A stretch of DNA of 17,186 nucleotides from Candidatus Krumholzibacteriia bacterium. Its GTDB lineage: Bacteria; Krumholzibacteriota; Krumholzibacteriia; WVZY01. Made by a program: the position numbers and the translations under genes. The notes under the pieces were generated by a model. The model ran no database searches. It was not told where the DNA came from and saw nothing but the letters and a program-made list of their open reading frames with translations. The stretch is from assembly GCA_036478295.1 (NCBI GenBank), contig JAZGDW010000166.1:1-17186 (forward strand). The letters run 5' to 3'. This document shows positions 3-17,000 of the stretch, in pieces (the first letter of the stretch is position 1; every line of letters begins with the position of its first letter).

Positions 3-2495
3 GATCGTAATGTGATCCTGCGCCTGCGCACGATCGAGATCCCCCGGCGGGTGAGCTTCATCCAACACGTGGCCTCCTACCAGAAACAGGTCGGGCCGAT
101 CGTCCCAAGCCGTCCGGAGCTTACCGCCTCGGCCGACTCGCTCTCGTTCGCCACCGTTACGGTCGGGGACACCGTGTCGTTGGATTTGCGGATCGAGAAC
201 ACCGGCAATCAGGCTCTGACGATCACCAGCGTGACGTTGCCATCGGCCGAGATGGAGATCAACCGGTTGCTACCCATTACAATCACCCCGGATAGTACAG
301 ATACGCTGACTGTGTTCCTCCAACCCCGGACAGAACTCAATATTTCTGGGAATCTGCTCGTTTCCAGCGACGATCCCATCACCCCCGTTGCCTCGATCGC
401 GGTCACAACCGACATCAAGCCGCTTTCCATCGCGTCGCAGGCACTGCCCGACAGTACGACCGTGCCGCTCGGAGCTGGGGTAACCGTTCTAGTGATCCCT
501 GCCGAGGCTGTTCGGATCGAACGCGGCACACTTTATCATGGCGCTACCGGTGACACGGTGTTTTCGGCGGTTCCACTGAAGCTGTCTGGGGGTTTTTTCA
601 GCGGCATAATTCCGGGCGAAGCCGTCACGGAACTCGGGCTGCAATACTACGTCGAGGTCGAGAACAGCGGTGTCTTCAACACCGACCCGCCCGGCGCACC
701 AACCGATTCACTTTTCTTTCAGGCCGTCGAATCACCGATGTCCATCACGTCGGCGGCGCAGCCGAATTCGGGTGATGGGTTCGTCGAGAATCGAATCGTT
801 CGAGTGCTAGTCACATTACCGTTGGGCGCGATCTTCAAACGTGGCGCACTGCACTTCCGGCGCGGTGGCGAAGAGTTTTTCCAAGTCGACAGCCTTCGCA
901 CCGGCGATCCACTTGCCTTCGGCACCATTCCCGACTCACTCGTCGGGCCGCGCGGCGTCGAGTACTGGGTCTCGGTCGAAACGGAGTCCCAGACGATGCT
1001 CACCGACCCGCCTATAGACGCCGCCGGCAATCCCCGGTCGCTCTCGATTGTCGTCTCGGACCTCGTCGAGAAGAACAAACATGCCGGCGAAGTGTTCCGC
1101 CTGCTCTCGGTACCGCTGGCGATGCAAGGAACAATCACCGGTGCGCTCACCGACGACATCGGCGGACCGGACAACATGCGTTGGCGGCTCTTTGCGTTCG
1201 AGCCGGTTGGTGGCAAGAACTACTTGGAGCTCCCCAACGACAGCCTCTTTGCCTTCGAGCAAGGACGCGCCTACTGGCTCATCACCCGCGACGGCCACCG
1301 GATCGGCACCGGCCCCGACCTCGGCGAGACGACGCCGACCGATGGCATGTACGCGCTCACGCTGCAGCCGGGATTCAACCTGATTGGCAATCCCTTCAAT
1401 TTTCCCGTCGCGTGGGACTCGATGCGGGTCGATACGCTTTCGATGGCACAGGCGGTGTCGAAGCTCGTAGAACCACCGGTTCGGTGGGGTGGTTTTCAGT
1501 ACCGCGGCGATGTAACGGTGCTGGATCCGTTCGAAGGATATTGGGTAAAGAACCTGCACACCGCCGCGGTGGTGCTCCGCATTCCGCCAGAAGAAGCGGC
1601 GGGCGGTGCGACGCGAACCTTTCCTGCTACGGTGGCGTCCGCGGCCATAGCAACCACAACTGGTACGGACGGATGGCGGCTTCAGCTGAGTGCGAGATCG
1701 GGCGATGCGAGGGACACGTATAACTATGTCGGCGTGACACCCGGCGCAACACTCCACCGGGACCCCAGCGACCGATCGGAAGCACCAATGAGTCCGGGGC
1801 CTGCGATCTCGCTCTATTTTCCACACAACGACTGGGAGAAACACCCGGGGCCGTACACGGTAGACATGCGGGGTGAGGCTCAGGCCGTGGATACCAAGAC
1901 GCTAGGCCTCTCGCTAACCGAGCAAGAACTCTGGGGCTACGTGTGGCGTTTCGATGTGGCCAAGAACTTCTCGGTCGACGGGGCGGGTGATGAGGTCGTG
2001 CTCGACTTCGGCGATATCGAGAGCGTTCCCGGCGATGCGAAGGTGCTCCTGGTCGACCACGACCTCGATCGCCTCACCGACCTCAAGAAAGAGCACACCT
2101 ACCGTTACTTCCAGGGCGTGCGGGCCGTCGTGCAAAGCGAGAATGACGCCCGGTTTGCCCTCATCGTCGGCAGCGACGAGTTCATCGCGAAACGCGACGA
2201 CCTGCCGGCGCTGCCCACTCGAACGGTGCTCCACCAGAACTATCCCAATCCGTTTAACCCGACGACAATCATCCGCTACGAGATCGCGCGGCCCGGTGAT
2301 GTCACACTTCGGATGTACAATGCCGCGGGAGCGCTTGTGAAAGAGCTTTACAATGGCCATCGCGCAGCCGGCGTCTATGAAGCCGGCTGGAACGGGGAGA
2401 ATAACCAGGGCCGCAAGGTTGCGTCGGGAATCTATTTCTACAAACTGACCGCGGTGGATTTTGCGCAGACCAAGAAAATGATCCTGCTAAAGTAG
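3..2495 (+). CDS. Large secreted protein, 5'-truncated: choice-of-anchor D/ASH-like Ig domain, two duplicated beta-rich domains, C-terminal FlgD-Ig/T9SS type A-like sorting domain
   Basis: The frame is open from position 3 (GAT CGT AAT GTG), so GTG at 12 is probably not the true start. Ig motif 'LSFATVTVGDTVSLDLRIENTGNQALTITSV...SSDDP'. C-terminus 'LHQNYPNPFNPTTIIRYEI...WNGENNQGRKVASGIYFYKL...TKKMILLK', then TAG at 2493-2495. Confidence 0.85.
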   Translation, partial: DRNVILRLRTIEIPRRVSFIQHVASYQKQVGPIVPSRPELTASADSLSFATVTVGDTVSLDLRIENTGNQALTITSVTLPSAEMEINRLLPITITPDSTDTLTVFLQPRTELNISGNLLVSSDDPITPVASIAVTTDIKPLSIASQALPDSTTVPLGAGVTVLVIPAEAVRIERGTLYHGATGDTVFSAVPLKLSGGFFSGIIPGEAVTELGLQYYVEVENSGVFNTDPPGAPTDSLFFQAVESPMSITSAAQPNSGDGFVENRIVRVLVTLPLGAIFKRGALHFRRGGEEFFQVDSLRTGDPLAFGTIPDSLVGPRGVEYWVSVETESQTMLTDPPIDAAGNPRSLSIVVSDLVEKNKHAGEVFRLLSVPLAMQGTITGALTDDIGGPDNMRWRLFAFEPVGGKNYLELPNDSLFAFEQGRAYWLITRDGHRIGTGPDLGETTPTDGMYALTLQPGFNLIGNPFNFPVAWDSMRVDTLSMAQAVSKLVEPPVRWGGFQYRGDVTVLDPFEGYWVKNLHTAAVVLRIPPEEAAGGATRTFPATVASAAIATTTGTDGWRLQLSARSGDARDTYNYVGVTPGATLHRDPSDRSEAPMSPGPAISLYFPHNDWEKHPGPYTVDMRGEAQAVDTKTLGLSLTEQELWGYVWRFDVAKNFSVDGAGDEVVLDFGDIESVPGDAKVLLVDHDLDRLTDLKKEHTYRYFQGVRAVVQSENDARFALIVGSDEFIAKRDDLPALPTRTVLHQNYPNPFNPTTIIRYEIARPGDVTLRMYNAAGALVKELYNGHRAAGVYEAGWNGENNQGRKVASGIYFYKLTAVDFAQTKKMILLK

Positions 2496-2845: not shown

Positions 2846-3904
2846 CTACTCGAGCACTTTCACGTTTTCGTGAGTCGTCGCCCAGATATACCAGAAGGTA
2901 TCGAAACCGTTCAGCTTGACGAGTGTCGGCGCGGCGACCTTTTCGGCTTTTGCTTCCGGCTCGACGGCGAAACCGCCGGCGCTCGTAAAACTGTCACCGG
3001 TTACGGCGTAGCTCCACTTTCCATCTTTCATGACGAAACGGTCGCCCGCGTGGTCAACGTCGGCGATGTACGCATACGTGGATGCGAAAATCGATGAGCC
3101 TTTTTCCCGGAACAGAAACACTTCGCGGGTCTTACTGAGCTTGAATGAGCGGCCGCCCTCGAACTTCGAGTGTGCCACCGCATACGGGATCCCGTTCAGT
3201 TGAAACGCGTAGATCGACGCCTTGTCGTACATGCGCGTGTCACTGGTCGAGAGATTGCGGAACGTACGCGAGCTCGTAAAGTAGCTGTCGTAGGGGTTAC
3301 TCTCGTCGTGCTCTTTCCCATCGACGGAAAGGACTAGCGTGTCGGGATGACGCTTTTTCCATTCCCCCCACGTCATCTTCTCGGCGACCGGCACTTCCAC
3401 CAGCTGTGTTCCCTGCAGGACACCCCCGATGGCGTCGCCGGTTATGATGGACCACCAGCTGTCCGTCTCGCGGTCACGCATGACCAGGGAGGCGTTCATC
3501 AATCCGCCGGATGGCTCGAAAGCAAGTGTTTTTCCTGAATAACGACGGTCGTACACGACGCCCGTATTGGCCAGTGGTCACCAAACGGCGGCCAGGGGGC
3601 GCCCGGCGAAGTCATCGTTAACGATCTCGTGATGATTCAACAAGTTGAGGCTGTAGGCCTTGGCCACTCCGTTGTAGAACACGCCCATCACCCACGCGTC
3701 GTCACCGATTTCGGCCTCGTCGGCCGTTACGAACTCGGGGTCGAAAACGGCGGGAATGCCACCTCTGGGCAGGAGAATTTGAACCCCGGGCGGGGCCTCC
3801 TCGTCCTGGGCGAGGGCATCGGGAACGGCCAAATGGGCTGCTCCGGCGTACACCAGCGCTCCTGCCACCCCGGCAAGCACCAGGGCAAAAAACGTTCGAA
3901 ACAT
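2846..3904 (-). CDS. DUF3179-family exported protein, probable selenoprotein (352 aa, in-frame TGA = Sec109 at 3578-3580)
   Basis: Track ORFs 3578..4108 and 2846..3556 are in one frame, separated only by TGA: ...HHEIVNDDFAGRPLAAVW-TGA-PLANTGVVYDR...SGGLMNASLVMRDRETDSWWSIITGDAIGG...TWGEWKKRHPDTLVL...FWYIWATTH. These are DUF3179 motifs, and the TGA sits at the Cys of the family's 'CPL' motif. ATG at 3904 has AAAGGA 6 nt upstream. There is a signal-peptide-like N-terminus and a hairpin directly after the TGA. Confidence 0.85.
3535..3574 (-). promoter_or_regulatory. Putative bacterial SECIS element
   Basis: mRNA after UGA: CCA CUG GCC AAU ACG GGC GUCG UGUA CGAC CGUCGU UAUU CAG. The apical stem GUCG/CGAC closes a UGUA loop starting 23 nt after UGA. 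Lower pairings are GGC/GUC, AC/GU, AAU/AUU and CUG/CAG. Folded by eye. Confidence 0.7.
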
Positions 3905-3932
3905 AAGTTGTCCTTTCCGGGGCGACCGCCTT

Positions 3933-3961
3933 AATATAACATACGGGAACAAGCCGGGCAA
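3933..3961 (-). promoter_or_regulatory. Putative sigma70 promoter for the DUF3179 gene
   Basis: Minus strand TTGCCC (3961-3956), 17 bp spacer, TATATT (3938-3933), with an extended -10 TGn. It lies ~30 nt upstream of ATG 3904 in an AT-rich patch. Confidence 0.55.
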
Positions 3962-4040
3962 CGCTTGCCATTCGAGCCCGCCCCTGTGTTTCCCCGGGTA
4001 GCGATACCCGATCGTCCATCGCCGGAGGAGCCTTCTCCAG

Positions 4041-5102
4041 ATGCGAATAGAAGTGGTACCCGACGTCAGCGCCACCGAATGGCAGCAGCTCGTCGCTAAA
4101 GACCCCAAGGCCAGTTTTTTTCACACCCTGGAATGGGGCCAGTGCGTCCAGAGCATCTTCAAGGGATGGAACCGTTTCTTCCTGACAGCGAGAAGCGACG
4201 GTGAGCTTATCGCCGCCATTCCCGCCATGAGGCTTTCCAAGCGCGGCGTCTTCGCCATGATGTCGATGCCGTTCGGGACCTACGGTGGCCCCCTGGTCGC
4301 CGACGGAGCGCCGCCGGGCATCAGCGATGACCTCAGCCGCCGGTTCTTCGAGGCCGCGCGGCCGGCGCGTGTGGCGTTTGCCGAACTGGTGGACTTTCCC
4401 GCCCAACTCGCTGCGGTACCGTTCAAACGCATGCGTTCGGTGGAGGACGAAGCGCGCGTGCTCAGTCTCGAACCCGGCTACGACAAACTATGGACGGGAT
4501 TCAAGGATACAAACCGCAATAAGATCCGCAAGGCCGAAAAATCCGGCGTCACCATAAAACTGGCGGAGTCACGGGAGGATTTTCTCGCCTACAACGAAGT
4601 ACTGAGCGAGTGCTCCCGGCGCTGGGAGGAGCCGACTCAGTTTCACCGGGAATTTTTCGAGGCGTTGTGGGAGCTTCACAACGGCGGCATCCAAATGTGG
4701 CTCGCGGTGCACGACGGGGCGATTATCTCGGGACTGCTCAATTTTGCGCATAACAAGAGCGTGATGAACTGGGGTACAGTCTCTCTCCCCAGCGCGCGGC
4801 ACCTCGCTCCGGTCAACCTGCTCCACGCCCGCGCCATCGAGCACGCCGTCGACAAGGGTTTTTCGTTGTACAATTTCGGCTCGAGCGCCGGGATGGAAGG
4901 CGTGGACAAGTTCAAGGCCACGTTCGGTGCAGAGCGACTCCGCTACTATCACCACGTGCTGGAAAAAAGATGGTTTCCTATTTTTCGCCGCTGGTCACGC
5001 CGGCGACGCACCGATTACAAGACCTACCGCGGCAATGCCGGGTCGTTCGCGGAACACGAGGAAACGAAGCACGCGCCCGCGTCCGTCACCGCGAACCCGT
5101 AG
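4041..5102 (+). CDS. GNAT-family N-acyltransferase, FemAB-related / Acetyltransf_6 type
   Basis: GGAGGAG upstream of ATG. Motifs 'W..LV......SFFHTLEW', 'SMPFGTYGGPL', 'RNKIRKAEKSGV', 'NLLHARAIEHA...G...YNFGSS...GVDKFKATFGAE'. Confidence 0.85.
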   Translation: MRIEVVPDVSATEWQQLVAKDPKASFFHTLEWGQCVQSIFKGWNRFFLTARSDGELIAAIPAMRLSKRGVFAMMSMPFGTYGGPLVADGAPPGISDDLSRRFFEAARPARVAFAELVDFPAQLAAVPFKRMRSVEDEARVLSLEPGYDKLWTGFKDTNRNKIRKAEKSGVTIKLAESREDFLAYNEVLSECSRRWEEPTQFHREFFEALWELHNGGIQMWLAVHDGAIISGLLNFAHNKSVMNWGTVSLPSARHLAPVNLLHARAIEHAVDKGFSLYNFGSSAGMEGVDKFKATFGAERLRYYHHVLEKRWFPIFRRWSRRRRTDYKTYRGNAGSFAEHEETKHAPASVTANP

Positions 5103-5148
5103 CTTCGCGTGCCAACCCGTCACGCGCGGCCTGGCCGCCGGGTCGTGG

Positions 5149-5844
5149 CTAGTTCCGGTTCGTGTACACGACGAACTCACACCCGCCGAAGTTGTAACTC
5201 CCAAGCCTCACGAAGAACGCTTCCTCGTCGATCACCCGGCGAAATTCTGGGTTGTGATAGATGAGCCATAGCTTGCGGGAATGGTTCATATGAGATGCGA
5301 TGATGTTCGAAAAAACGTTTGTCATCACCGTGGCGTCGAAGGGGTTGAAAAAAAAGAACGTGGTATCGTCGTCGCGAATGGGGTAGTCGACGACGTCAGA
5401 CTCAATGATTTCCACGTGAGCCTGGATCCCGTTTTTCTCGCTGTAGAGCGCGAGGTTTTTTCTCGCCTGTACGCATAACTCGCGAGAGAACTCCACCCCG
5501 ACCACCCGCTCGAAACCGTACGCACTCGCCACCAGAAGTACACGCCCCTTGCCGCACCCGAAGTCGACGAACCCGCCCGCCTTCGGAAACGCCATGGCCT
5601 TGAAGAGCCGCCGCAGGGGACGGGCACGCGTGGGCTCGTAGCGCATGCCACTCACCTTGTTGGCGCTCGCGATGTCCAGGTCGTCCAGCTCCACGAGTTG
5701 CAGGGTATCGGTGCCGTAGCGGCGGTCGAACCACAGGTCTCCCACTTTGCTAAGAAGGATCGACGCCCGTCTCCAAACGAGCGCGATCGTCTTCCCAAGT
5801 CCTTTTTCTCTGAGATTGGTAGTGGTCCGGCGCAAGAGAGTCAT
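5149..5844 (-). CDS. Class I SAM-dependent methyltransferase
   Basis: Motif I 'FVDFGCGKGRVL', 'VVGVEFS', 'FFFFNPF', 'LIYHNP', and N-terminal 'FDRRYGTDT...YEPT'. Starts 9 bp after the transporter stop. Confidence 0.85.
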   Translation of the reverse strand: MTLLRRTTTNLREKGLGKTIALVWRRASILLSKVGDLWFDRRYGTDTLQLVELDDLDIASANKVSGMRYEPTRARPLRRLFKAMAFPKAGGFVDFGCGKGRVLLVASAYGFERVVGVEFSRELCVQARKNLALYSEKNGIQAHVEIIESDVVDYPIRDDDTTFFFFNPFDATVMTNVFSNIIASHMNHSRKLWLIYHNPEFRRVIDEEAFFVRLGSYNFGGCEFVVYTNRN

Positions 5845-5853
5845 GGGCGGGGG

Positions 5854-7098
5854 CTACCTCACAAAGATACCCACGACGGCGCCGGTCATGCTGGTGGCGA
5901 TGGTGCCCGCCAGGATCGAGCGAAAACCGAGGGCGACGATCTCGCTGCGACGCCCGGTAGCCATTGCTCCCATGCCGCCGATCATGATGCCGAGGCTGCC
6001 GGGATTGGCAAAGCCGCACATGGCATACATGACGATCAGGCGGCTCCGGGGGCCCAGCGCGCCGTCGGCCAGGCGGGTCAGGTCGAGGTAAGCGATGAAT
6101 TCGTTCAATACCGTTTTCGTCCCCATCAGCGCGCCCGCGGTTATGCTCTCGCTCCACGGGATTCCCATGAACCACATGACCGGCGCCATGACGTAGCCCA
6201 GCAGCCTCTGCAGGGTGATGGCTTCCCCGCCCATTCCCGGGAGGAGGCCGAGGATAATGTTCACCAGATGCACCAGCGCGACCAAGACGATGATCATGGC
6301 GACCACACTAAAGAGCAGCTGAATCCCTTGGAACGTCCCCTTGGTGATGGCGTCCATGGAGGAGGTGGCTTCTTCGGGGGTCGTGAGCTCGGCCGGCGTC
6401 GGCGGTTGCGTTTCGGGAATCATGATTTTCGAAATGGTAATCGCCGCCGGCGCGCTGATAATCGACGCGGTCAGGATGTGCCCCAGGGCGTTGGGAATCA
6501 CATCGCCCAGGATGCTCGCGTAGAGCACCATTACCGTTCCCGCGACGGTCGCCATGCCGCACGTCATCAGGCTGAACAGCTCGCTCCTCGTCATCCTCCC
6601 GAGGTACGGACGAACGAGGAGCGGCGCCTCGACCATGCCGACGAATATGTTGGCGGCCACCCCCACGCCTTCCGCACCACCGATACGCATGGTCCTACGC
6701 AGCGCCCAGGCGAAGCCTTTGACGACCACGGGCAGAACCTTCCAGTAAAACAGGAGGGCCGAGAGGGCGCTCATCACCAGGATGAGGGGCAGCCCCTTGA
6801 AGGCCAGGATAAAGCTCGAGCCGGGGATGGCTTCTTCGTACGGCAGCGGCGCACCGGCGAGATACCCGAATACGACCTTGGCGCCGGCCGTCGTGGACTC
6901 TTCCAGCGCCACCACCACCTTGTTCAGGGTGACGAATACACGACTCAACGCGGGTATCTTGAGGAGCAACGCACCGAGTGCCACCTGCACGCCGAGACCG
7001 GTAAGCACCATGCGCAGGGAAACACGTTTCCGGTTTTCGCTGAAGAGCCAGGCGATGGCGACGAACGCCGCCAGGCCAAGAACGCTTTGCAGGATCAT
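5854..7098 (-). CDS. nupC: Concentrative nucleoside transporter (CNT/NupC family)
   Basis: Multi-TM protein with CNT motifs 'AWLFSENRKRV', 'VFGYL', 'AANIFVGMVEAPLLVRPYL..MTRSELF..MT.GMATVAG', 'GTKTVLNEFIAY', 'YAMCGFANPGSLGIMIGG'. Confidence 0.93.
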   Translation of the reverse strand: MILQSVLGLAAFVAIAWLFSENRKRVSLRMVLTGLGVQVALGALLLKIPALSRVFVTLNKVVVALEESTTAGAKVVFGYLAGAPLPYEEAIPGSSFILAFKGLPLILVMSALSALLFYWKVLPVVVKGFAWALRRTMRIGGAEGVGVAANIFVGMVEAPLLVRPYLGRMTRSELFSLMTCGMATVAGTVMVLYASILGDVIPNALGHILTASIISAPAAITISKIMIPETQPPTPAELTTPEEATSSMDAITKGTFQGIQLLFSVVAMIIVLVALVHLVNIILGLLPGMGGEAITLQRLLGYVMAPVMWFMGIPWSESITAGALMGTKTVLNEFIAYLDLTRLADGALGPRSRLIVMYAMCGFANPGSLGIMIGGMGAMATGRRSEIVALGFRSILAGTIATSMTGAVVGIFVR

Positions 7099-7180
7099 GA
7101 TAGTCGATAGTACTCAGTGACCTGCTGTTTTCCAAGCGAATTGAGGCCACAGAGGCCGGAACGGCGAGCGCGTCTCTCGT

Positions 7181-9133
7181 CTATCCCCGTTTCCCCAGAA
7201 ACGAGCCGAAGAACCCCTTCTTGTTCCGTTGCTGCTCCATCTGCTTGACGACGAAGCCCTTGAAGGAAGACGAACAGATATCCGGTCCGGCTTTCGACTC
7301 GAGCAGGTAGCCGCGGCGCTCGAGATCCTCGTTCACGTACTTGTATTTCTTGTTGATCGCCTTTCCGATTGCGATGCGGCTCAGGTTGTCACGGGCTGGC
7401 TCGTCCATCCGCTCCCACACGAACCGGTAATGTTGATCCACTTCGTCCATATAGGATCGCTTGATCTCCTTCCAGTCCGGTTCGGCATCCGGGTTGTCCG
7501 TCAGGTACTCGAAGACATTCGCACACGCAACCTGGAGAAAAAGCGGAAAGTGGCCCGCGAGTTCCAGTATCCTGTCCGCGTAGGGTTCGAGCGGCACCCC
7601 TTCGGTCTCCGAGGGCGCGGTGATGAGCTCGAGCGCCTCGTCCTGCGTAAAGGGGCGAAGCGGCAAGTTGGAAAAGATATTAAAAAACGGAGAATCGGAG
7701 ATGTCCTTGTTGTGGCACATCCGCTGCAGGTCATCATAAGAGGATGTTACATAAGCAACCCGGTAACTGTTCGCCAGTGAGCGCAAAAACGAAAAGAAGC
7801 TCTCGTCGAAATTCTTGTTACGGGTAATGGCCTCGAATTCATCCATCAGGATGATGATTCTCTTGCCCTGGCCGTCCAGTTCTTCGATAGTCGCTTTCAA
7901 CTGGTCCAGAGTATTATCACGGCTTGTATAATCACTCCCGTCCTTCAATTCATAACTGAACATGTTGAACAAGAAATCGATAAAGCGGGGAATGTCATAG
8001 TCCGCGTCACTCTGAAAATCCATGTATGCGAAAATGGCATGCTCGTGGTTCTCCATGTTACGTCTTCGATTCCTGGGATGATAAACGTGGTTCAATAGCG
8101 ACGATTTGCCGATTCTCCGCTCGCCCACGACCGAGATCGACTGCGGGTGGGGGGCATCGAGACGCGAGTAGATCTTGCGGAGTTCCCTGGAACGCCCGAA
8201 GAACATACCTGGATTCTTGATCATTACGCGGTTGAGGTAGGGATTTCGCTTGCTGCCGCTCTTCGTGAAGACGTCGAGGCCGGAGAGTGTACTCGACAGC
8301 TCGCGATCCGCCGTCGTGAAATCCTTCTGAATCGCCTCGAGTTCAGAGATTACTTCGTCAAAATCGCGCGGGCGGCTGCGGGGATCTTTCTCGAGGCACC
8401 GCAAGATAAGCTCCTTCATCCCATCGGGCACGCCCTCGGCGAACTCGATATCAAAATGATTCAAGATGAGATAGGTAACCGCGTGGGGGTGTTCGGCCTC
8501 GAAAGGAAACCGACCGTTCACCAGACGATGCAGGCCGACACCAAAAGCAAAAATATCGACCCTGCCGTCGATCTTCTGGTTCTTGATTTGCTCGGGCGCG
8601 ATGTAATACGGCGTTCCGACCGCGGCGTGGCCGGACGTCTGGGCCTCTTCGTGAAGCACCTTTGCCAGCCCGAAATCCAGAACTTTGATGTTCTGCTCGT
8701 TATCTTCCCCTTCGTTGATCATGATGTTCCGCAGGGTCAGGTCCCTGTGGATGATGCCCTGCTTGTGCCCGTAGCTCATCGCCTGACAGACCTGGGTCGC
8801 GATCGTACAAACCTGTGAAATGGTCAGCGCCGTGCTCTTGCTGAGGTCCAGCAGATTGGGCCCGTTCACGTACTCCATGACGAGGTAGGGGCGGCCCTTG
8901 TATTCCGCAAAATCATGGACGGTAACAATATTGGGATGATTGAGCCTGGCCATGGATTCGGCTTCGAACAAGAAACGGGCTTTCGCGCCAGTGTGCACCA
9001 TCCGCTCATCCAGCACTTTGACCGCAACGGGCATCTTGAGCGTGGTATGGACGCCCTTATAGACTTCCGCAAATCCGCCCTTACCGACCTTCTTTTCGAT
9101 CTTGTATTTGTCTTGAAGAATCTTCCCGATCAT
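7181..9133 (-). CDS. Hanks-type protein kinase fused to a C-terminal STAND-like P-loop ATPase
   Basis: Kinase: GKGGFAEVY, VAVK, HRDLTLRN, DFG, GTPYYIAPE, DIFAFG. ATPase: NPY...FFGR, Walker A GERRIGKS (8102-8125), Walker B ILMDEFE, GxP-like 'AGHFPLFLQ'. No TM segment. The start overlaps the upstream stop (ATGA). Confidence 0.9.
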   Translation of the reverse strand: MIGKILQDKYKIEKKVGKGGFAEVYKGVHTTLKMPVAVKVLDERMVHTGAKARFLFEAESMARLNHPNIVTVHDFAEYKGRPYLVMEYVNGPNLLDLSKSTALTISQVCTIATQVCQAMSYGHKQGIIHRDLTLRNIMINEGEDNEQNIKVLDFGLAKVLHEEAQTSGHAAVGTPYYIAPEQIKNQKIDGRVDIFAFGVGLHRLVNGRFPFEAEHPHAVTYLILNHFDIEFAEGVPDGMKELILRCLEKDPRSRPRDFDEVISELEAIQKDFTTADRELSSTLSGLDVFTKSGSKRNPYLNRVMIKNPGMFFGRSRELRKIYSRLDAPHPQSISVVGERRIGKSSLLNHVYHPRNRRRNMENHEHAIFAYMDFQSDADYDIPRFIDFLFNMFSYELKDGSDYTSRDNTLDQLKATIEELDGQGKRIIILMDEFEAITRNKNFDESFFSFLRSLANSYRVAYVTSSYDDLQRMCHNKDISDSPFFNIFSNLPLRPFTQDEALELITAPSETEGVPLEPYADRILELAGHFPLFLQVACANVFEYLTDNPDAEPDWKEIKRSYMDEVDQHYRFVWERMDEPARDNLSRIAIGKAINKKYKYVNEDLERRGYLLESKAGPDICSSSFKGFVVKQMEQQRNKKGFFGSFLGKRG

Positions 9134-11331
9134 TGCTGAACGACCCCCTCGGCGGACATATCGATGGACAATTCCTTGTCCCCGCCCGAGAGCACCTGTA
9201 CCACCCTGGTTACGGTACCGTACGTCGGATGGCGCAACATGATCGTGTACGAGCCCTGCGAGAGAGACTGCTCATGACGCGACCCCTGTTTGACCAGGGC
9301 TCCGTCGAGATAGATCTTCGCGTAGGGCACCACTTTGATGGTCAGCTTGCCCGGCGGCAGTTTCTGGAGCTCGCTGCGAACTTCATTCCTAGGCGTGGGC
9401 ACCCGGATTGTCAGGTTCTTGGTCGCATAACCTTCCATCTCGAGCCGCAGCCGGTGCCGGCCGTAGACGAGCCTGTACATGTCTGGCGTCTTCCCCGCGG
9501 GCTTGCCGTCTATAAAAATCAAAGCCCCCGAAGGATCACTTTCGATACGAGTGTTGGCCATCGACTTTGCCAGATCATGATGACTGGTCACGACGGAATC
9601 CTCATAAACCTGGACACTCACCACCCGGCGGTCGTAGCCCTCCATGGCGAGGCGTATCTCGTGCGGGGCATTGACGGACAGGTTATCGAAGGTCCACGGC
9701 GTCACAGAATCTGTCTGCTTTCCATCCAGCGAGATTCTCGCCCCGCGCGGTGACGATGTGACTCTCACGCCGCCGGATTGCTCGATCAGCGTAATCAACG
9801 TATCAAAAGGCTCATCCGGCCGCAGCACCACCGTTGCCTCTGCCGGCTTGTACCCGGCAAGCTCGATGCGAAGAACAGCGCTCGCCGCGGGCACTACGAC
9901 ATTCCCCATGGGAGTCTGGCCGATCCTTCGATCATCCAGGAGAACCCACGCGTTGGGCGGCTCTGTCGCAATGGTCACACGCGTCGAATCTACGACCACG
10001 GAAACGCCCGGCTGGTTGGCGGGAGGCCTGGTAATGACCCACGTCGAGCCGGCGATCAGTGCGACAGCAGCCGCGATGGTCAGCGTCCTCGTGAGCTTCC
10101 TGCCCTTTATCCATTCGAGCCCCTCCCCGAGTTCCCCTTCCGCCGCTTTAATTTCATCGATGACCTGCCAGATCGAATGCATGCGCCCGGCCCAACGCCG
10201 CCACACATCCATCTTGAAAGTGTACTTGTTCTCGTCGCTTTCTTTTTCGAGTATGTCCTGGTGAAAAAGTCTCTCGAGCGTTTCATTCAGCGCATTGGGG
10301 TCAATGCTGAGTCCGATTTTCTCGTTCTTCCCATAGGCCAGGATTTCCTCGGCCGAGACCGGCTTGATCGCGTCCGTGTTCAGTTCCCCAATGATGGACA
10401 GGGCGAGTTTCTCGATGTCGGTCAGCGAGTTCCAGGCGAAGATCATCTGTGGCAGCGGATTCTCGATGATCTGGTCGGCGACGTTCTGGAGATCGTCGGC
10501 CGTCACTTCGTAGCGATGCACCTCGTTCAGATGGTCGACGAGCGCCTGGCATATGACCTGTGTGTAAAAGGGCTGGCCGGCGGTGAGCGCATAGATATGC
10601 TCCGGGACCAGCGGCTCGTACTGGATAACGTCGGCCAGAGGTTCCACGATGAGCCGCAGCGTATCCGCCTCCGTAAGAAAACTTATTCGGCGGTGAAGCG
10701 CCTTGACGAGAAAATGCTCCCAGTATTCGGCCTTTCTTTCCTCGAGCTTATCCGAACCCGTAAATACAATAAAAACCCCCTGCTTGTGTTCGATCCAGTT
10801 GGCAAAGAGGTTGAGAATCTCCGTACTTATGAGGCCTTTCACGTTATGGGTCTCGAATATCTCGTATTCGTCGAATAGGAGAATGAGCTTTTTCCCACCG
10901 AGACGCTCGTTGATCTTGGTGATCAGATTTTGAAACGCTTCCGACGAGCCGCTGTCGGTCTTCGCGAGAAAATCTCTTTCCAGGGAAATCCCGGGATCGC
11001 CAATCGCTTCGATGATGGCGCGGCCCAATTTGATCAGGAAATCGAGATCGTTCTCCACCGTCATCGCCTGCATGTCGATGAGCACCGGAAAAAAATCCTC
11101 CCCGAGACGACCGTTCATGATCTGAAAGAGGATCGACGTCTTGCCGCTGCGCCGGGAGCCGCATAGAACGAGGAGACCGCCCTTCTCGCCGCCCGTTACT
11201 TTTTGCCGGATGAATTTGAAATCGTCCTGCCGGCCGAAGAACATGTTCTGTTCCCGGATCGGATTGCCGACGATGTAGGGATTGGCGATCGGTTGGAAAT
11301 TATCTTTGCTGGCAGAGTTCATTAGGGGCAC
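9130..11331 (-). CDS. STAND-like P-loop ATPase - single TM helix - four PEGA-like domains
   Basis: NPYIVG...FFGR, Walker A GSRRSGKT (11137-11160), Walker B LLFDEYE, 'TAGQPFYTQ'. TM 'LTIAAAVALIAGSTWVI' follows basic KGRK. PEGA-type starts 'VTIATEPPNAWVLLD..IGQTP', 'VRVTSSPRGARISLDG...TP', 'IESDPSGALIFIDG...GKTP', 'LTIKVVPYAKIYLDG'. Start is GTG 11331 or ATG 11322. Confidence 0.85.
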   Translation of the reverse strand: MPLMNSASKDNFQPIANPYIVGNPIREQNMFFGRQDDFKFIRQKVTGGEKGGLLVLCGSRRSGKTSILFQIMNGRLGEDFFPVLIDMQAMTVENDLDFLIKLGRAIIEAIGDPGISLERDFLAKTDSGSSEAFQNLITKINERLGGKKLILLFDEYEIFETHNVKGLISTEILNLFANWIEHKQGVFIVFTGSDKLEERKAEYWEHFLVKALHRRISFLTEADTLRLIVEPLADVIQYEPLVPEHIYALTAGQPFYTQVICQALVDHLNEVHRYEVTADDLQNVADQIIENPLPQMIFAWNSLTDIEKLALSIIGELNTDAIKPVSAEEILAYGKNEKIGLSIDPNALNETLERLFHQDILEKESDENKYTFKMDVWRRWAGRMHSIWQVIDEIKAAEGELGEGLEWIKGRKLTRTLTIAAAVALIAGSTWVITRPPANQPGVSVVVDSTRVTIATEPPNAWVLLDDRRIGQTPMGNVVVPAASAVLRIELAGYKPAEATVVLRPDEPFDTLITLIEQSGGVRVTSSPRGARISLDGKQTDSVTPWTFDNLSVNAPHEIRLAMEGYDRRVVSVQVYEDSVVTSHHDLAKSMANTRIESDPSGALIFIDGKPAGKTPDMYRLVYGRHRLRLEMEGYATKNLTIRVPTPRNEVRSELQKLPPGKLTIKVVPYAKIYLDGALVKQGSRHEQSLSQGSYTIMLRHPTYGTVTRVVQVLSGGDKELSIDMSAEGVVQQ

Positions 11332-11394
11332 CCGTTACGCCGACACCTGCACGGCGTGACCACTCCTGAGATCGCTGTCCTGACCGCGGCACCA

Positions 11395-12159
11395 TCAGTT
11401 GGTAGGCGGATCCGGGGGTGGGGGTAGAGGATCGGGGGGCGGCTCCACCGGTTCATCGCCTCCACTCAGACCTACGGCCAGAGCGACAACGGCGACCACG
11501 GCCCCAGCGCTTCGGGTTAGCCACCACCACTTTCCGCGCTTGCGCTTCAGGGACACGTTTTCCTTGAGAGAAACACCCGGCCGGATGAGGACGCGTCCGG
11601 TGTAGTCGTGGTGTCCGGACTTGGCCAGTGTGAGATCGTATTCACCGGCCCTGACCAGCGCAAGGTGAAGTGGAGTGGTCCCGACATGTTCGGAATTCAG
11701 GAAAACCCGGCAGTCCTTGGGGTCTTCGATGGTGAGAGACCCGAACATCTCTTTTCTCAACTGGTCGTAGTAGTCGTTTATCGCCGGGAGAAACCAGTCC
11801 TGTTCGGCGGTGAGATCCGGGTACTTCTCCAGAGCCTCTCGGGCCGTTCGGACCGCGCTGCCGGTGTCTCCCTTCTCGTGGTGTATCGCGACCAAGTGGT
11901 TGTACGCCCTCCGCAACACGAGCTCGGAGTTCGAGTATTCTGTAATAATCTCCTGCAGCATGTCGATGGCCTGGTCGTACTCGCCGTCGACTTTGAGTTT
12001 GATGACCTCGTCGAACTTGCTGATTGCGGTGCTGCCTTCATCGCCCGCTCTCTGACCCATGACGATATTCGGTGCGATCCACGCACTGGCAAAAGCGATC
12101 AGGGTAGCAAGTATGAGGACCCTCGGGAACAGGGAGTCCCTGGAGATAAGCCGGGTCAT
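11395..12159 (-). CDS. Exported/membrane TPR + PEGA domain protein with C-terminal hydrophobic helix and Pro-rich tail
   Basis: GAGGGGG RBS and hydrophobic N-terminus. TPR-like 'GEYDQAIDMLQEII..Y', 'AYNHL.......GD...A......ALEKYPD'. PEGA 'GSLTIEDP..CRVFLN...VGTTPL......AGEYDLTLAKSGH'. Tail 'RKRGKWWW-hydrophobic-PPPDPLPPPPDPP'. Confidence 0.8.
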   Translation of the reverse strand: MTRLISRDSLFPRVLILATLIAFASAWIAPNIVMGQRAGDEGSTAISKFDEVIKLKVDGEYDQAIDMLQEIITEYSNSELVLRRAYNHLVAIHHEKGDTGSAVRTAREALEKYPDLTAEQDWFLPAINDYYDQLRKEMFGSLTIEDPKDCRVFLNSEHVGTTPLHLALVRAGEYDLTLAKSGHHDYTGRVLIRPGVSLKENVSLKRKRGKWWWLTRSAGAVVAVVALAVGLSGGDEPVEPPPDPLPPPPDPPTN

Positions 12160-12314: not shown

Positions 12315-13256
12315 TCACGGGCCCGCCCCCGGGGAACGATCGCCGGGGCCGGTCTCAGCCAGCACCGGGTATCCGCTGCTTTCCGTCTCCCTCTTGAAAA
12401 GCTCGCCGAGCCTCGTGGTCACCGGACCGATTTCGCCGGAGCCGATTGTGTGGCCGTCGACCGCCCGTACCCAGGCCAGCTCGCCCATGGTGCCCGTGCA
12501 AAACATCTCGTCGGCGCTGTAGACGTCGCTGGTGGATATGTCGCGCACCTCGCACGAGATATCGTCGTGGGCGCACAGGGCCAGTACCACCCGCCGCGTA
12601 ATCCCCTCGGGGCAGGCGTAGGCGTGAGGGGTTGCCAGGGTGTCGTTTTTCACAATGAAGACGTTCGTCGCGTTGGTCTCCGCAACGAATCCTCGTGTAT
12701 CCAGCATGAGCGCTTCATCCGCGCCGGCGGCACTGGCCTGTATCTTGGCGAGGATCGACTGGATGAGATTGGCGTGATGGATCTTCGCGTCCAGGCAATC
12801 GGGTGGAAAGCGCCGGACCGAGCTTGTAATGAGTGACAAACTGTCCGTGCCGTAGACCGGATCCTTGTGTTCGGCGAGGATGATGAACGTGGGACCAGCC
12901 TGGTTGAGACGGGGATCCATCCCGGACGTGATCTTTTCGCCACGCGTGAGCGTCAGGCGGATGTGCACGCCGTCGCACATGTGGTTGGCCTCCAGCGTGC
13001 GGCGGATTTCTTTTATGAAATTCTCGTGCGGCGGGATTTCTGTGAATGCTAGTGCCTTCGCGGAATCGCGCAAACGGTCCAGATGTTCAATCAAGCGAAA
13101 AATCCGGCCATCGTAAAGCCTCAGACCCTCCCACACCGCGTCGCCACCCTGGACGACACTGTCAAACGGGCTGACCCGCGCCCGGTCGCGGTGTACGAGC
13201 TCGCCGTTGATATTCACGACCAGGTCGCGATTCTTTTCGTTAAACGTTTGTTGCAT
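12315..13256 (-). CDS. PLP-dependent aminotransferase class IV (branched-chain/D-amino acid aminotransferase-like)
   Basis: Motifs 'VSPFD..VQGGDAVWEGLR', 'HLDRL', 'RLTLTRG', catalytic-Lys region 'DAKIHHANL', 'EALMLD..GFVAE....NVF', 'EGITR', 'ADEMFCTGT'. ATG 13256 has GAGG 5 nt upstream and avoids the overlap created by the track start at 13343. Confidence 0.9.
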   Translation of the reverse strand: MQQTFNEKNRDLVVNINGELVHRDRARVSPFDSVVQGGDAVWEGLRLYDGRIFRLIEHLDRLRDSAKALAFTEIPPHENFIKEIRRTLEANHMCDGVHIRLTLTRGEKITSGMDPRLNQAGPTFIILAEHKDPVYGTDSLSLITSSVRRFPPDCLDAKIHHANLIQSILAKIQASAAGADEALMLDTRGFVAETNATNVFIVKNDTLATPHAYACPEGITRRVVLALCAHDDISCEVRDISTSDVYSADEMFCTGTMGELAWVRAVDGHTIGSGEIGPVTTRLGELFKRETESSGYPVLAETGPGDRSPGAGP

Positions 13257-13287
13257 AACAGCCTCGGTGCGCTTGACCCAGGCGGAT

Positions 13288-14058
13288 TCACGCGCGCAGG
13301 CGGTGCTCGTAGAGTCTATCATACGACACGCGGCATTCTTCATGAACCGCGCGCAGGCGCTCCGGCACCGGGTCGGGCTTGGGTTTGTACGGCTGGAATC
13401 CCGTGGACTTCTCGACGGCGCCGTACCAGTACTTCGCCCACACCCCGTCCGTATCGCGGGGCCCGACCTGCCATGACAGCATCTCTTCCTGAAAAGGAAC
13501 CGCCACTGTCTCGCACAGCGCTGCCAGCATGCCCCGCGGGTTATCGAGAATGTCTTTGACGTCCAGAACCGGCGGTGCGACGCCGGCCTCTTCGCGCAGC
13601 AGCTCGAAAAGCTCCCACTGCTGGGGCAACCCCGTGTCCTCCACCGTCGGGCTGGGTGTCACTCTTATGAGCGAGGTCAGCATTTCACGGGGGTCGCGAA
13701 TCAAGAACGCGTTGGTCACCGAGTGGATCCACGCGCGGTCCATTCCCGGGAGCAGGTGGTGCGCCATGTGTTTCTGATAGAAAATCGACTTGCCACCGGG
13801 GATGTCACCGGTCAGGTACTCGACCACCTTGCGCCAGTCCGTCTCCTGGGTGGTCAGCACTTCTTCGCGGCCGGGGTGGTCGACGTTCGTGCGGCTGAGA
13901 TAGTGTGCGTAGAGCGGCTCGTCGCAAACAAAGGTGTCGTCCCGACTTTCCCACGAGCGCATGAGCGCTGTGGAAATGTTGCGCGGTCCCGACCACATCG
14001 CAATGCGAACGCCGGGTGCTTGACGCTGCGCTTTATCCTGACGCGTCTCACGAGTCAA
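13288..14058 (-). CDS. Sulfotransferase-like P-loop protein (Sulfotransfer_5-type)
   Basis: 5'-PSB-like loop 'RIAMWSGPRNISTALMRSW', 'DEPLYAHYL', 'YQKHMAHHL', 3'-PB-like 'FLIRDPREMLTS', 'ML.W..GP...DGVWAKYWY.AV..STGF'. TTG start has AAGGAG 8 nt upstream. Confidence 0.8.
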   Translation of the reverse strand: MTRETRQDKAQRQAPGVRIAMWSGPRNISTALMRSWESRDDTFVCDEPLYAHYLSRTNVDHPGREEVLTTQETDWRKVVEYLTGDIPGGKSIFYQKHMAHHLLPGMDRAWIHSVTNAFLIRDPREMLTSLIRVTPSPTVEDTGLPQQWELFELLREEAGVAPPVLDVKDILDNPRGMLAALCETVAVPFQEEMLSWQVGPRDTDGVWAKYWYGAVEKSTGFQPYKPKPDPVPERLRAVHEECRVSYDRLYEHRLRA

Positions 14059-14091: not shown

Positions 14092-17000
14092 TCACTTCAG
14101 CACTACCAACTTGCGGGTGCGAACGAAGGTGCCGGCTCTGAGTTTGTAGAAATACACACCACTGGCAACGGCATCGCCCGATGCGTTGCGGCCGTTCCAC
14201 GGAACCTTGTAACGGCCAGGCTGCTGGTACTCGCTCACCAGCTCGCGGACGCGCTCACCCCGCACATTGTAGATGACAAGCCGCGTCTCCACCGCGTGCG
14301 GCAGGTCGTAGGCGATGGTCGTCGTCGGGTTCAGCGGATTCGGATAGTTCTGGTGCAGCGCGAACTGCCGCGGAATATTTGGCAGGTCGTTGGCGAGCAC
14401 GGTTGTCACCGCGGTGGAACTCACAACGAGATGAGCCGGAATCGTCACCTCGGTGGTCAGCGGATCGTTGCTCGCGATTCCCAACTGCGCGCGGTAGTCG
14501 CCGTCGGACAAACCGGTGGCGTCAAAAGTCACCTCGACTTTCATCGAAGCACCAGCGGCTATCGTGCCGGCAAGCGGATTGGCAGAGATCCATCCCGGCG
14601 CCTCACTCACCCAGTTCAAGGCGTTTCCCAATAGAACCCCGGCGCTCGCCGGCCCACCGCGGACGAACAGGTGCCAGTCCGGATCGAGCCCACACAGCAC
14701 CACGCGGCCCCCTGTGACCGTGCCGGCAAGGATCGCGGCTGCCCCAGAAGTGGGCACGACCGCCACGGGCTCGAGCCCCGGCGGAAAACGTGTGAAGACG
14801 TTGTGAACCCCGTTGTTCCAGTTACTGAGGTCGGCGCTCGTTAGACTCGCCATGACGGGGTGAGACGGGTTTACGATATTGACCACGTTCCGATCGACGC
14901 CCAGAAAACCCGCGTCGAAGGGTAACCATCGCCAGTCCAGCGCATTGTCACCGTTTTCTGACAGGGCGACGAGCCCGCCGCCCGCCGCCACAAAAGCGGC
15001 GATCTCCGTCTTCTTGTTCACGAGTGCCTGCATACCCGCCGGGTTCGCACCGCCCGACGTTCGGCCGACGTAGAGCAAATCGAATTCATTCAGGTTGGTT
15101 CCTGCAAAAGCAGCGGGCGACACTCGCGTGTAGGGGATGCCCAGGACGTCCAGGACCCGGTAGTTCTCCGGCTTGCCGAGGTCGATGGTGACGATTTTGG
15201 GTATGCGCTGCGCTGTCGAGTCGGCGTCTGTAATCGCAATGATGAATTCCAGCGGGTTTGCCCCCGCCGAGTTATCGATGGTCAAAAGTTGTTTGGAAAC
15301 GCTACCCGAAGATAGGTGTTCGTGCAGCGAATCGGGCGACACCGAGATAACCGGCGGCAAGGCGCCCGTGCCCCTCAGACTCACGGTGACGACGGATTCG
15401 TCGGGATCGTCGCTTTCGATGGTTAGTGTTGCGGTAATGTCTCCCACGTTACTCGGCGCAAACGTGACCAGGACAACACGGCTCCCACCCACCTCCAGGT
15501 TGAACCCCGTCACATCGACGGTGTATAACCGTGCGTCTGTGGATAAACTGGTGACGTGCAGTGTGTCGGCACCCACATTCAGGACGGTCAGTGTATCGGT
15601 CGCCGATCCGCCGATGAACACGATCCCGTACTCGAGCACGCTATCGGACAGCGCAATATCCGCCGACGGGATCACGTGGAGACGCACCGGCACCGCCAGC
15701 TCCGGACTCAGGGGGTCGTTGCTTACGAGGACGATGGACGCTTCGAAATCACCAGCGAGACCGGCCGCGTCGAGCGTAATATCCGCATCCAGCGACGCCC
15801 CCGCCGGCACCGTGCCGACGAGTGGCGTCCCCCTGGCCCACCCGACGGGTAGTGCCCCATTGGATATCCATATCTCATCCCACCAAGCCTCGGCCGACGA
15901 ATCGAAACTGTATATGTCGAGGCGGAAAACGTCGTTGACGATGGGCGCGTTGCGCAAGGAGATGCCCGCAAGAACGAGCGTTCCATCTACATAATAATCG
16001 AAGGTCTTGGTCGCAAAACTGATGTCCTTGAGTTCAATGTGATACCACGTATCCGCGTTGTACGGGTAGGTGTCGTGACCACCGACATCGGCGTTGATAT
16101 AGAAGCCTCCTGACCGCTGCGCATAGAACCAGATGACCTCCGTACCGAATTGATCCCGCAGCACGAAATATGAGTCGTCGGCCCTTACAGACGACGAGCG
16201 AATGTAGAAACCGATGTACGCGGGCTGCACCGCACCGAGCCGCTGGAAGATCCCGTCGAAGTGACCGAACGTTGAATTGGAATCGTGGTAACTGTAAACC
16301 GTGGCCGCCGCCGCGGTGGCGCTGGTGACTTCTTTCAGTCCCGCACCGGCAATGATCCAGCCGTCGAAATCACCATCCTCGAAATCATCCTGCAACACAA
16401 TTGCCGCGGGCCCGCCCGGCGTCACCGCTTGCCCACCGAACGGCTGAGGCGGCCCGGCGGTTCCTGCGTGCGCGGGTTGGCGCGGCGCCATCCCGGTTTC
16501 TGCGTGCGCCGCTTGAGGCGGCCCGGCGGTTTCCGCGTGCGCGGGTTGTCGCGGCGCCGTGCCGGTCCCCGTTGGCGTTAGCGCCATCATGGGAGCAGCA
16601 CGCAACCGGACCTCCGGTAGATGCGCCGCGGATACATCCCGAGGTTGGGCCGCGGCAGCGGGCACGCCTGCAGGCGTATCGAGGATCACCATCTGGAATG
16701 TCAAATCACCGCCGCCAGCGCTGTTGTCGATGGTCAGCGTGTGTTTCGATGATTGGCCGGTGAACAGGCTGTCGCCCACCGCATCGGGTAACACCCGAAT
16801 CACGGGCGGCAGGAGTCCCTGGCCCAGCAGGGCGACGGTGAGGGTCTTTTGCTCGTGATCGTTGCTTCGCACAGCAAGGGTCCCGGCACTTGCACCCACC
16901 GTCGCGGGGGCAAAGGAGACCGCGACGGCCTGGCTTTCACCCGGGGCGACGTTCAAGGTGGAAACGCCGACGGCAAAGTCCGTTTTGCGCGGCGGCCGGA

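Follow-up and report, generated by a model that had tools for sequence, protein, structure and literature searches.

How might a bacterium pass a signal from its envelope to a cytoplasmic kinase when the sensor and the kinase are separate polypeptides? Single-chain receptor Ser/Thr kinases, including forms with the order kinase-transmembrane segment-PEGA, occur in bacteria. A different arrangement is found in a stretch of 17,186 nucleotides (hereafter the window) from a Candidatus Krumholzibacteriia bacterium (GenBank assembly GCA_036478295.1, contig JAZGDW010000166.1). Here, a cassette of three co-oriented minus-strand open reading frames (ORFs) at 7181-12159 encodes P0001, a small TPR-PEGA protein, P0002, a STAND-like ATPase joined through one transmembrane (TM) segment to PEGA-like domains, and P0003, a Hanks-type kinase joined to an nSTAND2 ATPase. 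We propose, with a probability of about 50%, that the membrane sensor and the kinase are coupled via paralogous STAND switches and that the three genes form an accessory cassette tied to envelope or surface biology. The three genes recur together in many uncultivated bacteria, where they probably provide a so far uncharacterised route for signals to cross the envelope, and we favour envelope or surface signalling over phage defence.

Two related ATPase modules on separate polypeptides

The features of the three proteins, in the order of the genes, are the following (aa, amino acids; AF2, AlphaFold2).

11395..12159, minus strand: P0001, TPR-PEGA membrane protein, 254 aa (ORF call and Pfam)
12061-12117, minus strand: signal-like hydrophobic segment of P0001, aa 15-33
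about aa 47-118 of P0001, minus strand: TPR region
11539-11736, minus strand: PEGA domain of P0001, aa 142-207
11464-11520, minus strand: second hydrophobic segment of P0001, aa 214-232
11398-11463, minus strand: conserved C-terminal PLPxPPxPP tail of P0001, aa 233-254
9130..11331, minus strand: P0002, STAND-like ATPase with one TM segment and four PEGA-like domains, 733 aa from the GTG at 11331
10132..11331, minus strand: ATPase module of P0002, predicted cytoplasmic, aa 1-400 (AF2 and Foldseek)
10030..10086, minus strand: single TM segment of P0002, aa 416-434
9133..10026, minus strand: ectodomain of P0002, aa 436-733, four tandem PEGA-like beta-sandwiches (Pfam and AF2)
9130..9133, minus strand: ATGA, overlap of the P0002 stop codon and the P0003 start codon (read directly)
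7181..9133, minus strand: P0003, Hanks-type kinase with nSTAND2 ATPase, 650 aa (ORF call and Pfam)
8366-9106, minus strand: Hanks-type kinase of P0003, aa 10-256 (Pfam)
7184-8281, minus strand: nSTAND2 ATPase module of P0003, aa 285-650 (Pfam)

ORF calls, Pfam matches and direct reading confirm the layout proposed in the first-pass annotation of this DNA, namely three co-oriented genes for TPR-PEGA, ATPase-TM-PEGA and kinase-ATPase proteins, the last two overlapping by ATGA, and every motif quoted there is found in the translations of P0002 and P0003. Translation of P0002 probably begins at the ATG at 11322, which makes the protein 730 aa long; this start agrees with the N-terminal consensus of its relatives and with the 730-aa length of P0004, a database protein that is 97% identical to P0002.

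The ATPase modules of P0002 and P0003 are related over their length. Alignment of profile against profile (hhalign) between aa 11-316 of P0002 and aa 291-589 of P0003 gave a probability of 98.6% (E 7.8e-16) over 274 columns with 22% identity. The two ATPases had been called clearly homologous, which holds for the whole module when profiles are compared, but pairwise BLASTP aligned only 59 residues (E 3e-5). The hhalign result, the AF2 model and the Foldseek matches described below agree that these are two paralogous STAND-like ATPases. In alignments of 25 P0002 relatives and 30 P0003 relatives, Walker A is kept in 25/25 and 30/30 sequences, the DE of Walker B is kept in 25/25 and 29/30, and invariant arginines are present in both sets. 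Since the Walker motifs are kept across the aligned relatives, both modules look active, as was first suggested. Walker A of P0002 reads GSRRSGKTS and Walker B reads LILLFDEYE, and the stretches AGQPFYTQ in P0002 and AGHFPLFLQ in P0003 are what we take to be a GxP-type motif. Mean pairwise identity among P0002 relatives is 59.2% in the ATPase module versus 38.7% in the PEGA part; among P0003 relatives it is 53.5% in the ATPase module versus 44.5% in the kinase.

P0003 matches PF20702 (nSTAND2) at aa 329-579 with E 3.9e-44 (151.5 bits versus a cut-off of 24) and is the only PF20702 match in the source genome. P0002 gave no PF20702 match at E <= 0.1, nor in the genome scan, and a precomputed match to this family is present in 1 of the 120 listed longer proteins with a P0002-type ATPase. 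The ATPase_2 match of P0002 (E 6.9e-7) stays under the Pfam cut-off (29.7 vs 33.2 bits). The AF2 model of aa 1-400 (pLDDT 85.3, pTM 0.81) consists of a P-loop domain, a helical domain and a winged-helix-like end, and this model and the Foldseek matches thus place in one module the layout of the STAND class. The top Foldseek matches, over ~390-430 columns, are PAB2304 (2qen), an archaeal Walker-type ATPase (E 2.1e-11, TMq 0.57), ORC/Cdc6 chains (E about 1e-10) and Sso1545 (2fna, TMq 0.54), with a tomato NRC3 chain at rank 25; by sequence, neither ATPase module had a PDB match above chance level. Like PAB2304, Sso1545 and ORC/Cdc6, the P0002 module combines a P-loop domain, a helical lid and a winged helix, whereas the ATPase_2/MNS-clade and ORC/Cdc6 proteins are soluble, have no TM segment, ectodomain or kinase partner, and share 12-17% identity with P0002.

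Do the two modules bind each other? The prediction of their complex reached an ipSAE of 0.53 (0.53, 0.51 and 0.53 in the individual runs), while the best of three controls scored 0.00; the runs agree in at least 92% of contacts, with a partner pLDDT of at least 79. The ipSAE mark is reached by 116/157 solved complexes and by 2/215 mismatched pairs, and values at the mark that do not exceed 0.60 comprise only 18 of the 157 solved complexes together with both mismatches. Part of the score may reflect likeness to ORC/Cdc6-like heteromers, which have already been solved. For the first-pass proposal that the proteins hetero-oligomerise through their ATPase domains, the prediction thus amounts to weak support.

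The output half, P0003, has a kinase domain (Pkinase, E 1.1e-57) with the Gly-rich loop, VAxK lysine, HRD motif, catalytic Asn, DFG Asp and APE motif of Hanks-type kinases, and K39, H129, R130, D131, N136, D153 and E181 are nearly invariant among its relatives. The DFG position reads DFG, DLG and DFN in 16, 10 and 2, respectively, of 28 relatives with an N-terminal kinase. The catalytic loop of P0003, HRDLTLRN (aa 129-136), resembles the HRDLAARN loop of tyrosine kinases. P0003 lacks hydrophobic segments and is, as judged from its sequence, soluble and cytoplasmic. A search with aa 290-650 returned 1094 proteins, and all 120 listed are kinase-nSTAND2 proteins or fragments of them. Two loci, one from Acidobacteriota and one from Gemmatimonadetes, have the opposite domain order, nSTAND2 followed by kinase (L038:1719-3647 and L046:5935-7947), which suggests that the two modules were fused independently; HRDLKPAN is retained in the permuted protein of L046.

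The sensor half, P0002, matches PEGA (PF08308) in 3 stretches with E 6.7e-38 (128.9 bits versus a cut-off of 20.8). Its ectodomain was modelled with a pLDDT of 92.9 as four beta-sandwich units, and four PEGA units, the number annotated at first, are therefore right in fold, though only 3 pass Pfam. A fold search with the ectodomain found only generic tandem Ig-like or CnaB-like surface-protein stalks, without a clue to a ligand. The flanks of the TM segment contain 4 Lys/Arg in the 15 residues before it and 1 after. This concentration of basic residues on the N-terminal side suggests, following the positive-inside rule, an N-in orientation, and so fits the proposed topology with a cytoplasmic ATPase and extracytoplasmic PEGA domains. 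More than 668 full-length relatives, 45-97% identical to P0002, were counted among the best 7999 candidates scored, and their named sources include Latescibacterota, Krumholzibacteriota and Eisenbacteria, among others.

The small partner P0001 matches TPR_6 (E 8.1e-6) and PEGA (E 5.6e-10; 39.4 bits versus the PF08308 cut-off of 20.8). Its second hydrophobic segment is preceded by a basic cluster, KRKRGKWWW, and followed by an acidic, proline-rich tail in which P248, P249, P251 and P252 are invariant in an alignment of 17 orthologues.

A recurrent cassette and its giant neighbour

The conservation of gene order is in line with a coupling of sensor and kinase. A scan of one genome per species yielded 44 loci, whose ORFs were scored against the domains of the three proteins, and 38 of them had at least 300 bp after the ATPase gene and were evaluable for the partner. 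The kinase-nSTAND2 gene directly follows the ATPase-PEGA gene in 35 of these 38 loci, in several phyla; 34 were counted by a script rule and L018 by inspection, the rule having failed there because the ATPase-PEGA gene is in pieces. Of note, one or both core genes in L014, L018, L029 and L030 appear in pieces as overlapping ORFs, for which frameshifts or assembly indel errors are possible explanations.

The only other genome of the same genus, G206 (92% complete), lacks the cassette. Positions 4001-7112 and 12396-14007 of the window match one contig of G206 at 79-80% identity, and between these flanks a slot of 693 bp with one 200-aa ORF replaces 5.28 kb holding the three genes. What G206 lacks between the conserved flanks is exactly the cassette, and we therefore conclude that the three genes come and go together. 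The ORF in the G206 slot (L047:4640-5242) encodes a secreted, Cys-rich protein. Taken with the 35/38 adjacent pairs and the presence of the TPR-PEGA gene in 20/41 loci, this indel makes the three genes a real recurrent unit, and the cassette is accessory within its phylum. A promoter and terminator scan, run without FCB-type promoters, found no more sites than in shuffled sequences and no terminator standing out between the three genes, and a scan of the whole window against Rfam gave 0 matches.

The sensor is modular, in that the ectodomain attached to its ATPase varies among relatives. Kelch (L033), two-component propeller (L043, L045) or TPR (L046) domains replace PEGA in distant sensor ATPases, and the sensor genes of L033 (Kelch) and L046 (TPR) are still followed by a kinase-nSTAND2 gene. 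Longer proteins with a P0002-type ATPase (1284-3665 aa, 260 matches) often carry Reg_prop or CarboxypepD_reg among the 120 listed, and 0 of these 120 has a kinase domain. The first-pass annotation saw in the cassette a PEGA receptor kinase that had been split and re-coupled. This history is not borne out: no fused kinase-ATPase-TM-PEGA form is present among the 120 listed longer relatives, which have other sensor ectodomains instead, and we rejected it, with the reservation that the search is weak evidence on this point because long proteins can crowd out relatives. In seven Eisenbacteria-type loci, a convergent downstream gene is the one that matches the TPR-PEGA gene, and PEGA was recognized by Pfam in 4 of the 5 such genes scanned.

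Clustering of flank ORFs revealed one recurrent neighbour besides the three genes, which the first-pass annotation did not link to them: a giant protein encoded in 22/44 loci and in the window. In 10 loci its gene is the next one after the kinase gene, in the same orientation. Many FG-GAP repeats were found in 10/10 giant proteins scanned, and FlgD_ig, which is typical here of cargo tails of the type IX secretion system (T9SS), is present in all 5 scanned giants that reach the C-terminus with a match. The member in the window is as follows.

3..2495, plus strand: last 830 aa of a giant surface protein secreted by the T9SS, truncated at the contig end (ASH, FlgD_ig, Por_Secre_tail)

This ORF is the best match in the source genome to the giant protein of L007 (52% identity over aa 857-1295 of that protein, E 2e-138). 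Orthologues with 45-51% identity over 830 residues are encoded in 3 of the 4 genomes of the family searched. By coordinate arithmetic, the open frame of the orthologue reaches to within a few hundred bases of the kinase gene in G207 and G196; in G201 it lies elsewhere, not beside the cassette, and in G206, without the cassette, no orthologue was found at E <= 1e-30.

Other features of the neighbourhood deserve mention. A second T9SS cargo protein with HYDIN/ASH Ig-like domains and Por_Secre_tail, cut by the window end, is encoded at 14092-17184 (minus strand), upstream of the cassette and in the same orientation, and sulfotransferase and class IV aminotransferase genes separate it from the cassette; two T9SS cargo genes in the 17-kb window exceed the genome average of about one per 57 kb. 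GT-C glycosyltransferase genes adjoin the cassette in 4 loci (PMT_2 in L010 and L012, STT3 in L025 and a TMEM260-like protein in L033), and sulfatase and sulfotransferase genes occur in L010 and in the window. These neighbours (L010:345-5019, L012:2-982, L025:5061-7265, L033:11435-13183 and window 13288-14058) hint at a link between the cassette and the modification of surface proteins. Just after the giant gene, at 2600-2770, lies a dispersed repeat of ~170 bp that has 52 matches of 76-94% identity in the source genome, further copies in G206 and no Rfam match, and that may be a MITE-like or REP-like element. Finally, DUF3179 is split over the minus-strand ORFs 2846-3556 and 3578-4108 (profile positions 74-290 and 2-61); the region matches G206 at 80%, and a frameshift, a pseudogene or an assembly error is possible.

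Related systems and competing explanations

The principle of paired STAND proteins has a precedent in the predicted nSTAND2 two-gene system, the closest one known to the cassette (Kaur, Iyer, Burroughs, Aravind, eLife 2021; PMC8195603). According to the sections of that paper used here, it is a mobile operon of two adjacent, co-oriented STAND genes encoding MNS-like NTPases, predicted to form a toroidal hetero-multimer and marked by a conserved arginine finger in both partners; the NTP motifs of one partner are eroded, and this partner carries a fused GT4 or HEPN. The table of the paper is mostly proteobacterial, and the system is read as a counter-invader. One Calditrichaeota row lists a gene for STAND plus winged helix-turn-helix together with membrane beta-barrel and Pkinase-cyclase genes, and neither "PEGA" nor "kinase+nSTAND2" occurs in supplement 6 of PMC8195603. 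Our cassette resembles this system in its adjacent, co-oriented genes and in P0003, which passes PF20702, whereas P0002 does not. In contrast to the eroded partner, both cassette ATPases keep their Walker motifs; the output is a Hanks-type kinase with a TM and PEGA partner instead of HEPN or GT4 effectors; and a TPR-PEGA protein and a giant T9SS protein are associated with the cassette.

The iSTAND ternary systems, subsystem 2 of the vWA-MoxR systems (Kaur et al., eLife 2020; PMC7159879, in the sections used here), combine an inactive STAND protein with a TM segment and PEGA, OmpA, PASTA or Sel1. Like P0002, they join STAND to a TM segment and to wall-associating domains such as PEGA, which implies that they act at the membrane. 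They differ from it in that their STAND modules are inactive and work with vWA and MoxR genes; the cassette ATPase keeps Walker A and B. Membership was ruled out: with Walker motifs intact, no vWA or MoxR family was found in the window family scan, which covered 14 ORFs. Beyond these two papers, our literature searches found no description of the exact arrangement, and the first-pass annotation knew of none. A hetero-multimer of paired adjacent STAND proteins is not new as a principle, having been predicted in print (PMC8195603).

Two further comparisons are with receptor kinases and with immune receptors. As in PknB/Stk1-type receptor kinases, in which the kinase is joined through a TM segment to PASTA or PEGA, a Hanks-type kinase is coupled to an extracytoplasmic wall-binding module, and aa 2-278 of P0003 match PknB_PASTA_kin with 263.8 bits, under the model cut-off of 450; unlike in single-chain receptor kinases, the ectodomain and the kinase belong to two different proteins, both of which contain a STAND module. 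In plants and animals, sensor/helper NLR pairs are paralogous STAND proteins that split sensing and output. The NLR pairs differ, however, in being cytosolic immune receptors of a different STAND clade, and no evidence of an immune role was found for the cassette.

A number of observations weigh against coupled signalling by the cassette. The complex prediction is weak. The kinase has lost the usual Lys of its catalytic loop, HRDL[T/S]xxN replacing HRDLKxxN in 27/28 relatives with an N-terminal kinase, and no FHA protein, PP2C phosphatase or substrate gene was seen among the window ORFs. Three loci are exceptions to adjacency: L028, whose genome G208 encodes a 46%-identical kinase-nSTAND2 protein at a distance of about 0.9 Mb, in a gene that has no sensor ATPase within 8 kb of it; L038, in which the kinase partner is 1.3 kb upstream; and L045, with no partner in 2.7 kb and none found in its genome with the query used. 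Furthermore, the partner in G211, which holds the non-evaluable L037, is encoded at another place in that genome; with the same query, G210 yielded no nSTAND2 partner and G209 only a match to the sensor ATPase itself. The TPR-PEGA gene is directly upstream in only 20 of the 41 loci with enough DNA, and it is not beside L003, the closest relative (58% identity) among the species-representative genomes scanned; there, the other strand carries a GAF histidine kinase gene. The topology of P0001, including the side on which its PLPxPPxPP tail lies, is ambiguous from its sequence because of the basic cluster before its second hydrophobic segment. The distribution in the phylum is patchy, the sensor gene being present in 30/208 genomes, 21/125 of good quality and 27/81 genera, and the GC content is 0.53-0.59 across the cassette versus 0.59-0.64 in its flanks; together with the indel, the lower GC would also fit a mobile conflict system. 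The giant gene of the window is convergent with the cassette, 4.7 kb away and on the other strand, and 62 T9SS C-terminal domain matches occur in the 3.5-Mb source genome (about one per 57 kb), so that the link between giant protein and cassette is loose in this genome. Lastly, all data come from metagenome-assembled genomes, and the source genome is 90.9% complete with 4.96% contamination.

Which other explanations, then, do these data leave room for? The cassette could be a counter-invader system of the nSTAND2 type, active in anti-phage defence or conflict, in which the membrane STAND senses attack at the envelope and the kinase-STAND shuts the cell down or marks invader proteins. The proposed counter-invader role of the mobile nSTAND2 operon with its toroidal hetero-multimer, and the TM and PEGA modules of the iSTAND conflict systems, are in line with this explanation (PMC8195603 and PMC7159879, in the sections used), as are the patchy distribution, the unit indel relative to G206 and the lower GC. 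In PADLOC-DB 2.0, the P0003 kinase domain also matches defence kinase models (mad6, 7.4e-76, and PD-T4-6), but only this generic kinase domain does so; P0002 has a weak PDC-S27 match (3e-5) and P0001 none, and the comparison with known anti-phage systems thus gave no match for the cassette as a whole. Several features argue against a defence role. The cassette is single-copy, with no second copy of either ATPase family in its own genome. The flanking genes vary between genera and are mostly housekeeping: among 114 scanned flank ORFs from 35 loci, a single IS110 transposase and a single SIR2 were seen, and restriction, integrase and phage families were absent (27 of the 141 listed flank ORFs, mostly giant-protein ORFs, several of them scanned separately, or other very long ORFs, were left out). 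Both ATPases are intact, in contrast to the described nSTAND2 system, the sensor is extracytoplasmic and, at 38.7% mean identity, moderately conserved, not hypervariable, and the recurrent link is to a giant T9SS surface protein. We regard defence as unlikely.

We attach a similarly low likelihood to the cassette serving to assemble, anchor or quality-check the giant FG-GAP T9SS protein. In that case P0002 and P0001 would handle or tether the cargo in the envelope, the kinase would only regulate them, and no hetero-oligomer would be needed. Such a function would agree with the giant gene lying directly downstream in 10 loci and nearby in others, with the orthologues beside the cassette in G207 and G196 and the joint absence of giant and cassette from G206, and with the glycosyltransferase, sulfatase and sulfotransferase neighbours. 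However, STAND-like and ORC-like ATPases act as switches, not motors. In addition, 22/44 loci have no giant gene in the available DNA, though many contigs are short, the Kelch and TPR relatives of the sensor keep the kinase partner without PEGA, and the giant gene of the window is outside the operon. Least probable of all is that the pairing is historical only, the two proteins acting separately, each as a homo-oligomer, and adjacency reflecting co-regulation: the unlinked pairs of G208 and G211, the weak ipSAE and the mere 22% identity of the modules would allow it, but the pair is adjacent in 35/38 loci across phyla, often with overlapping stop and start codons, both genes are retained even where unlinked, and the cassette is gained or lost as a unit.

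A possible signalling mechanism

Our working model of envelope signalling by coupled STAND switches is as follows. The PEGA ectodomain of P0002, perhaps helped by the small TPR-PEGA partner, would sense a change outside the cell and so drive nucleotide exchange in the ATPase module of P0002; possible cues are the condition of the giant FG-GAP T9SS surface protein and that of the wall or glycan layer. The P0002 module would then assemble with that of P0003 into a membrane-bound hetero-oligomer, which would cluster and activate the kinase, leading to the phosphorylation of cytoplasmic targets. In this scheme, the conserved PLPxPPxPP tail of P0001 could serve as a docking peptide.

A broader proposal, which we make tentatively and hold to be less probable than the coupling itself, is that such cassettes represent a third kind of transmembrane device besides histidine kinases and single-chain receptor kinases. 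In several phyla, a receptor STAND would recruit a paralogous STAND-output enzyme into an NLR-like, hetero-oligomeric membrane "signalosome" that, in this family, would report on the condition of a giant adhesin exported by the T9SS or on that of the envelope, with interchangeable sensors (PEGA, Kelch, propeller, TPR) and perhaps outputs.

In immunity and transcription, STAND/NLR-type ATPases are established cytosolic switches. If our reading is true, this family, which in public data comprises over 668 sensors and 1094 kinase partners, would extend the STAND switch principle to bacterial envelope signalling, one STAND protein being the membrane receptor and its paralogue the carrier of the kinase. 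The cassette also shows that the predicted nSTAND2 pairing extends beyond conflict systems with a dead partner, and it would give a handle on how uncultivated bacteria of the FCB group monitor very large secreted surface proteins.

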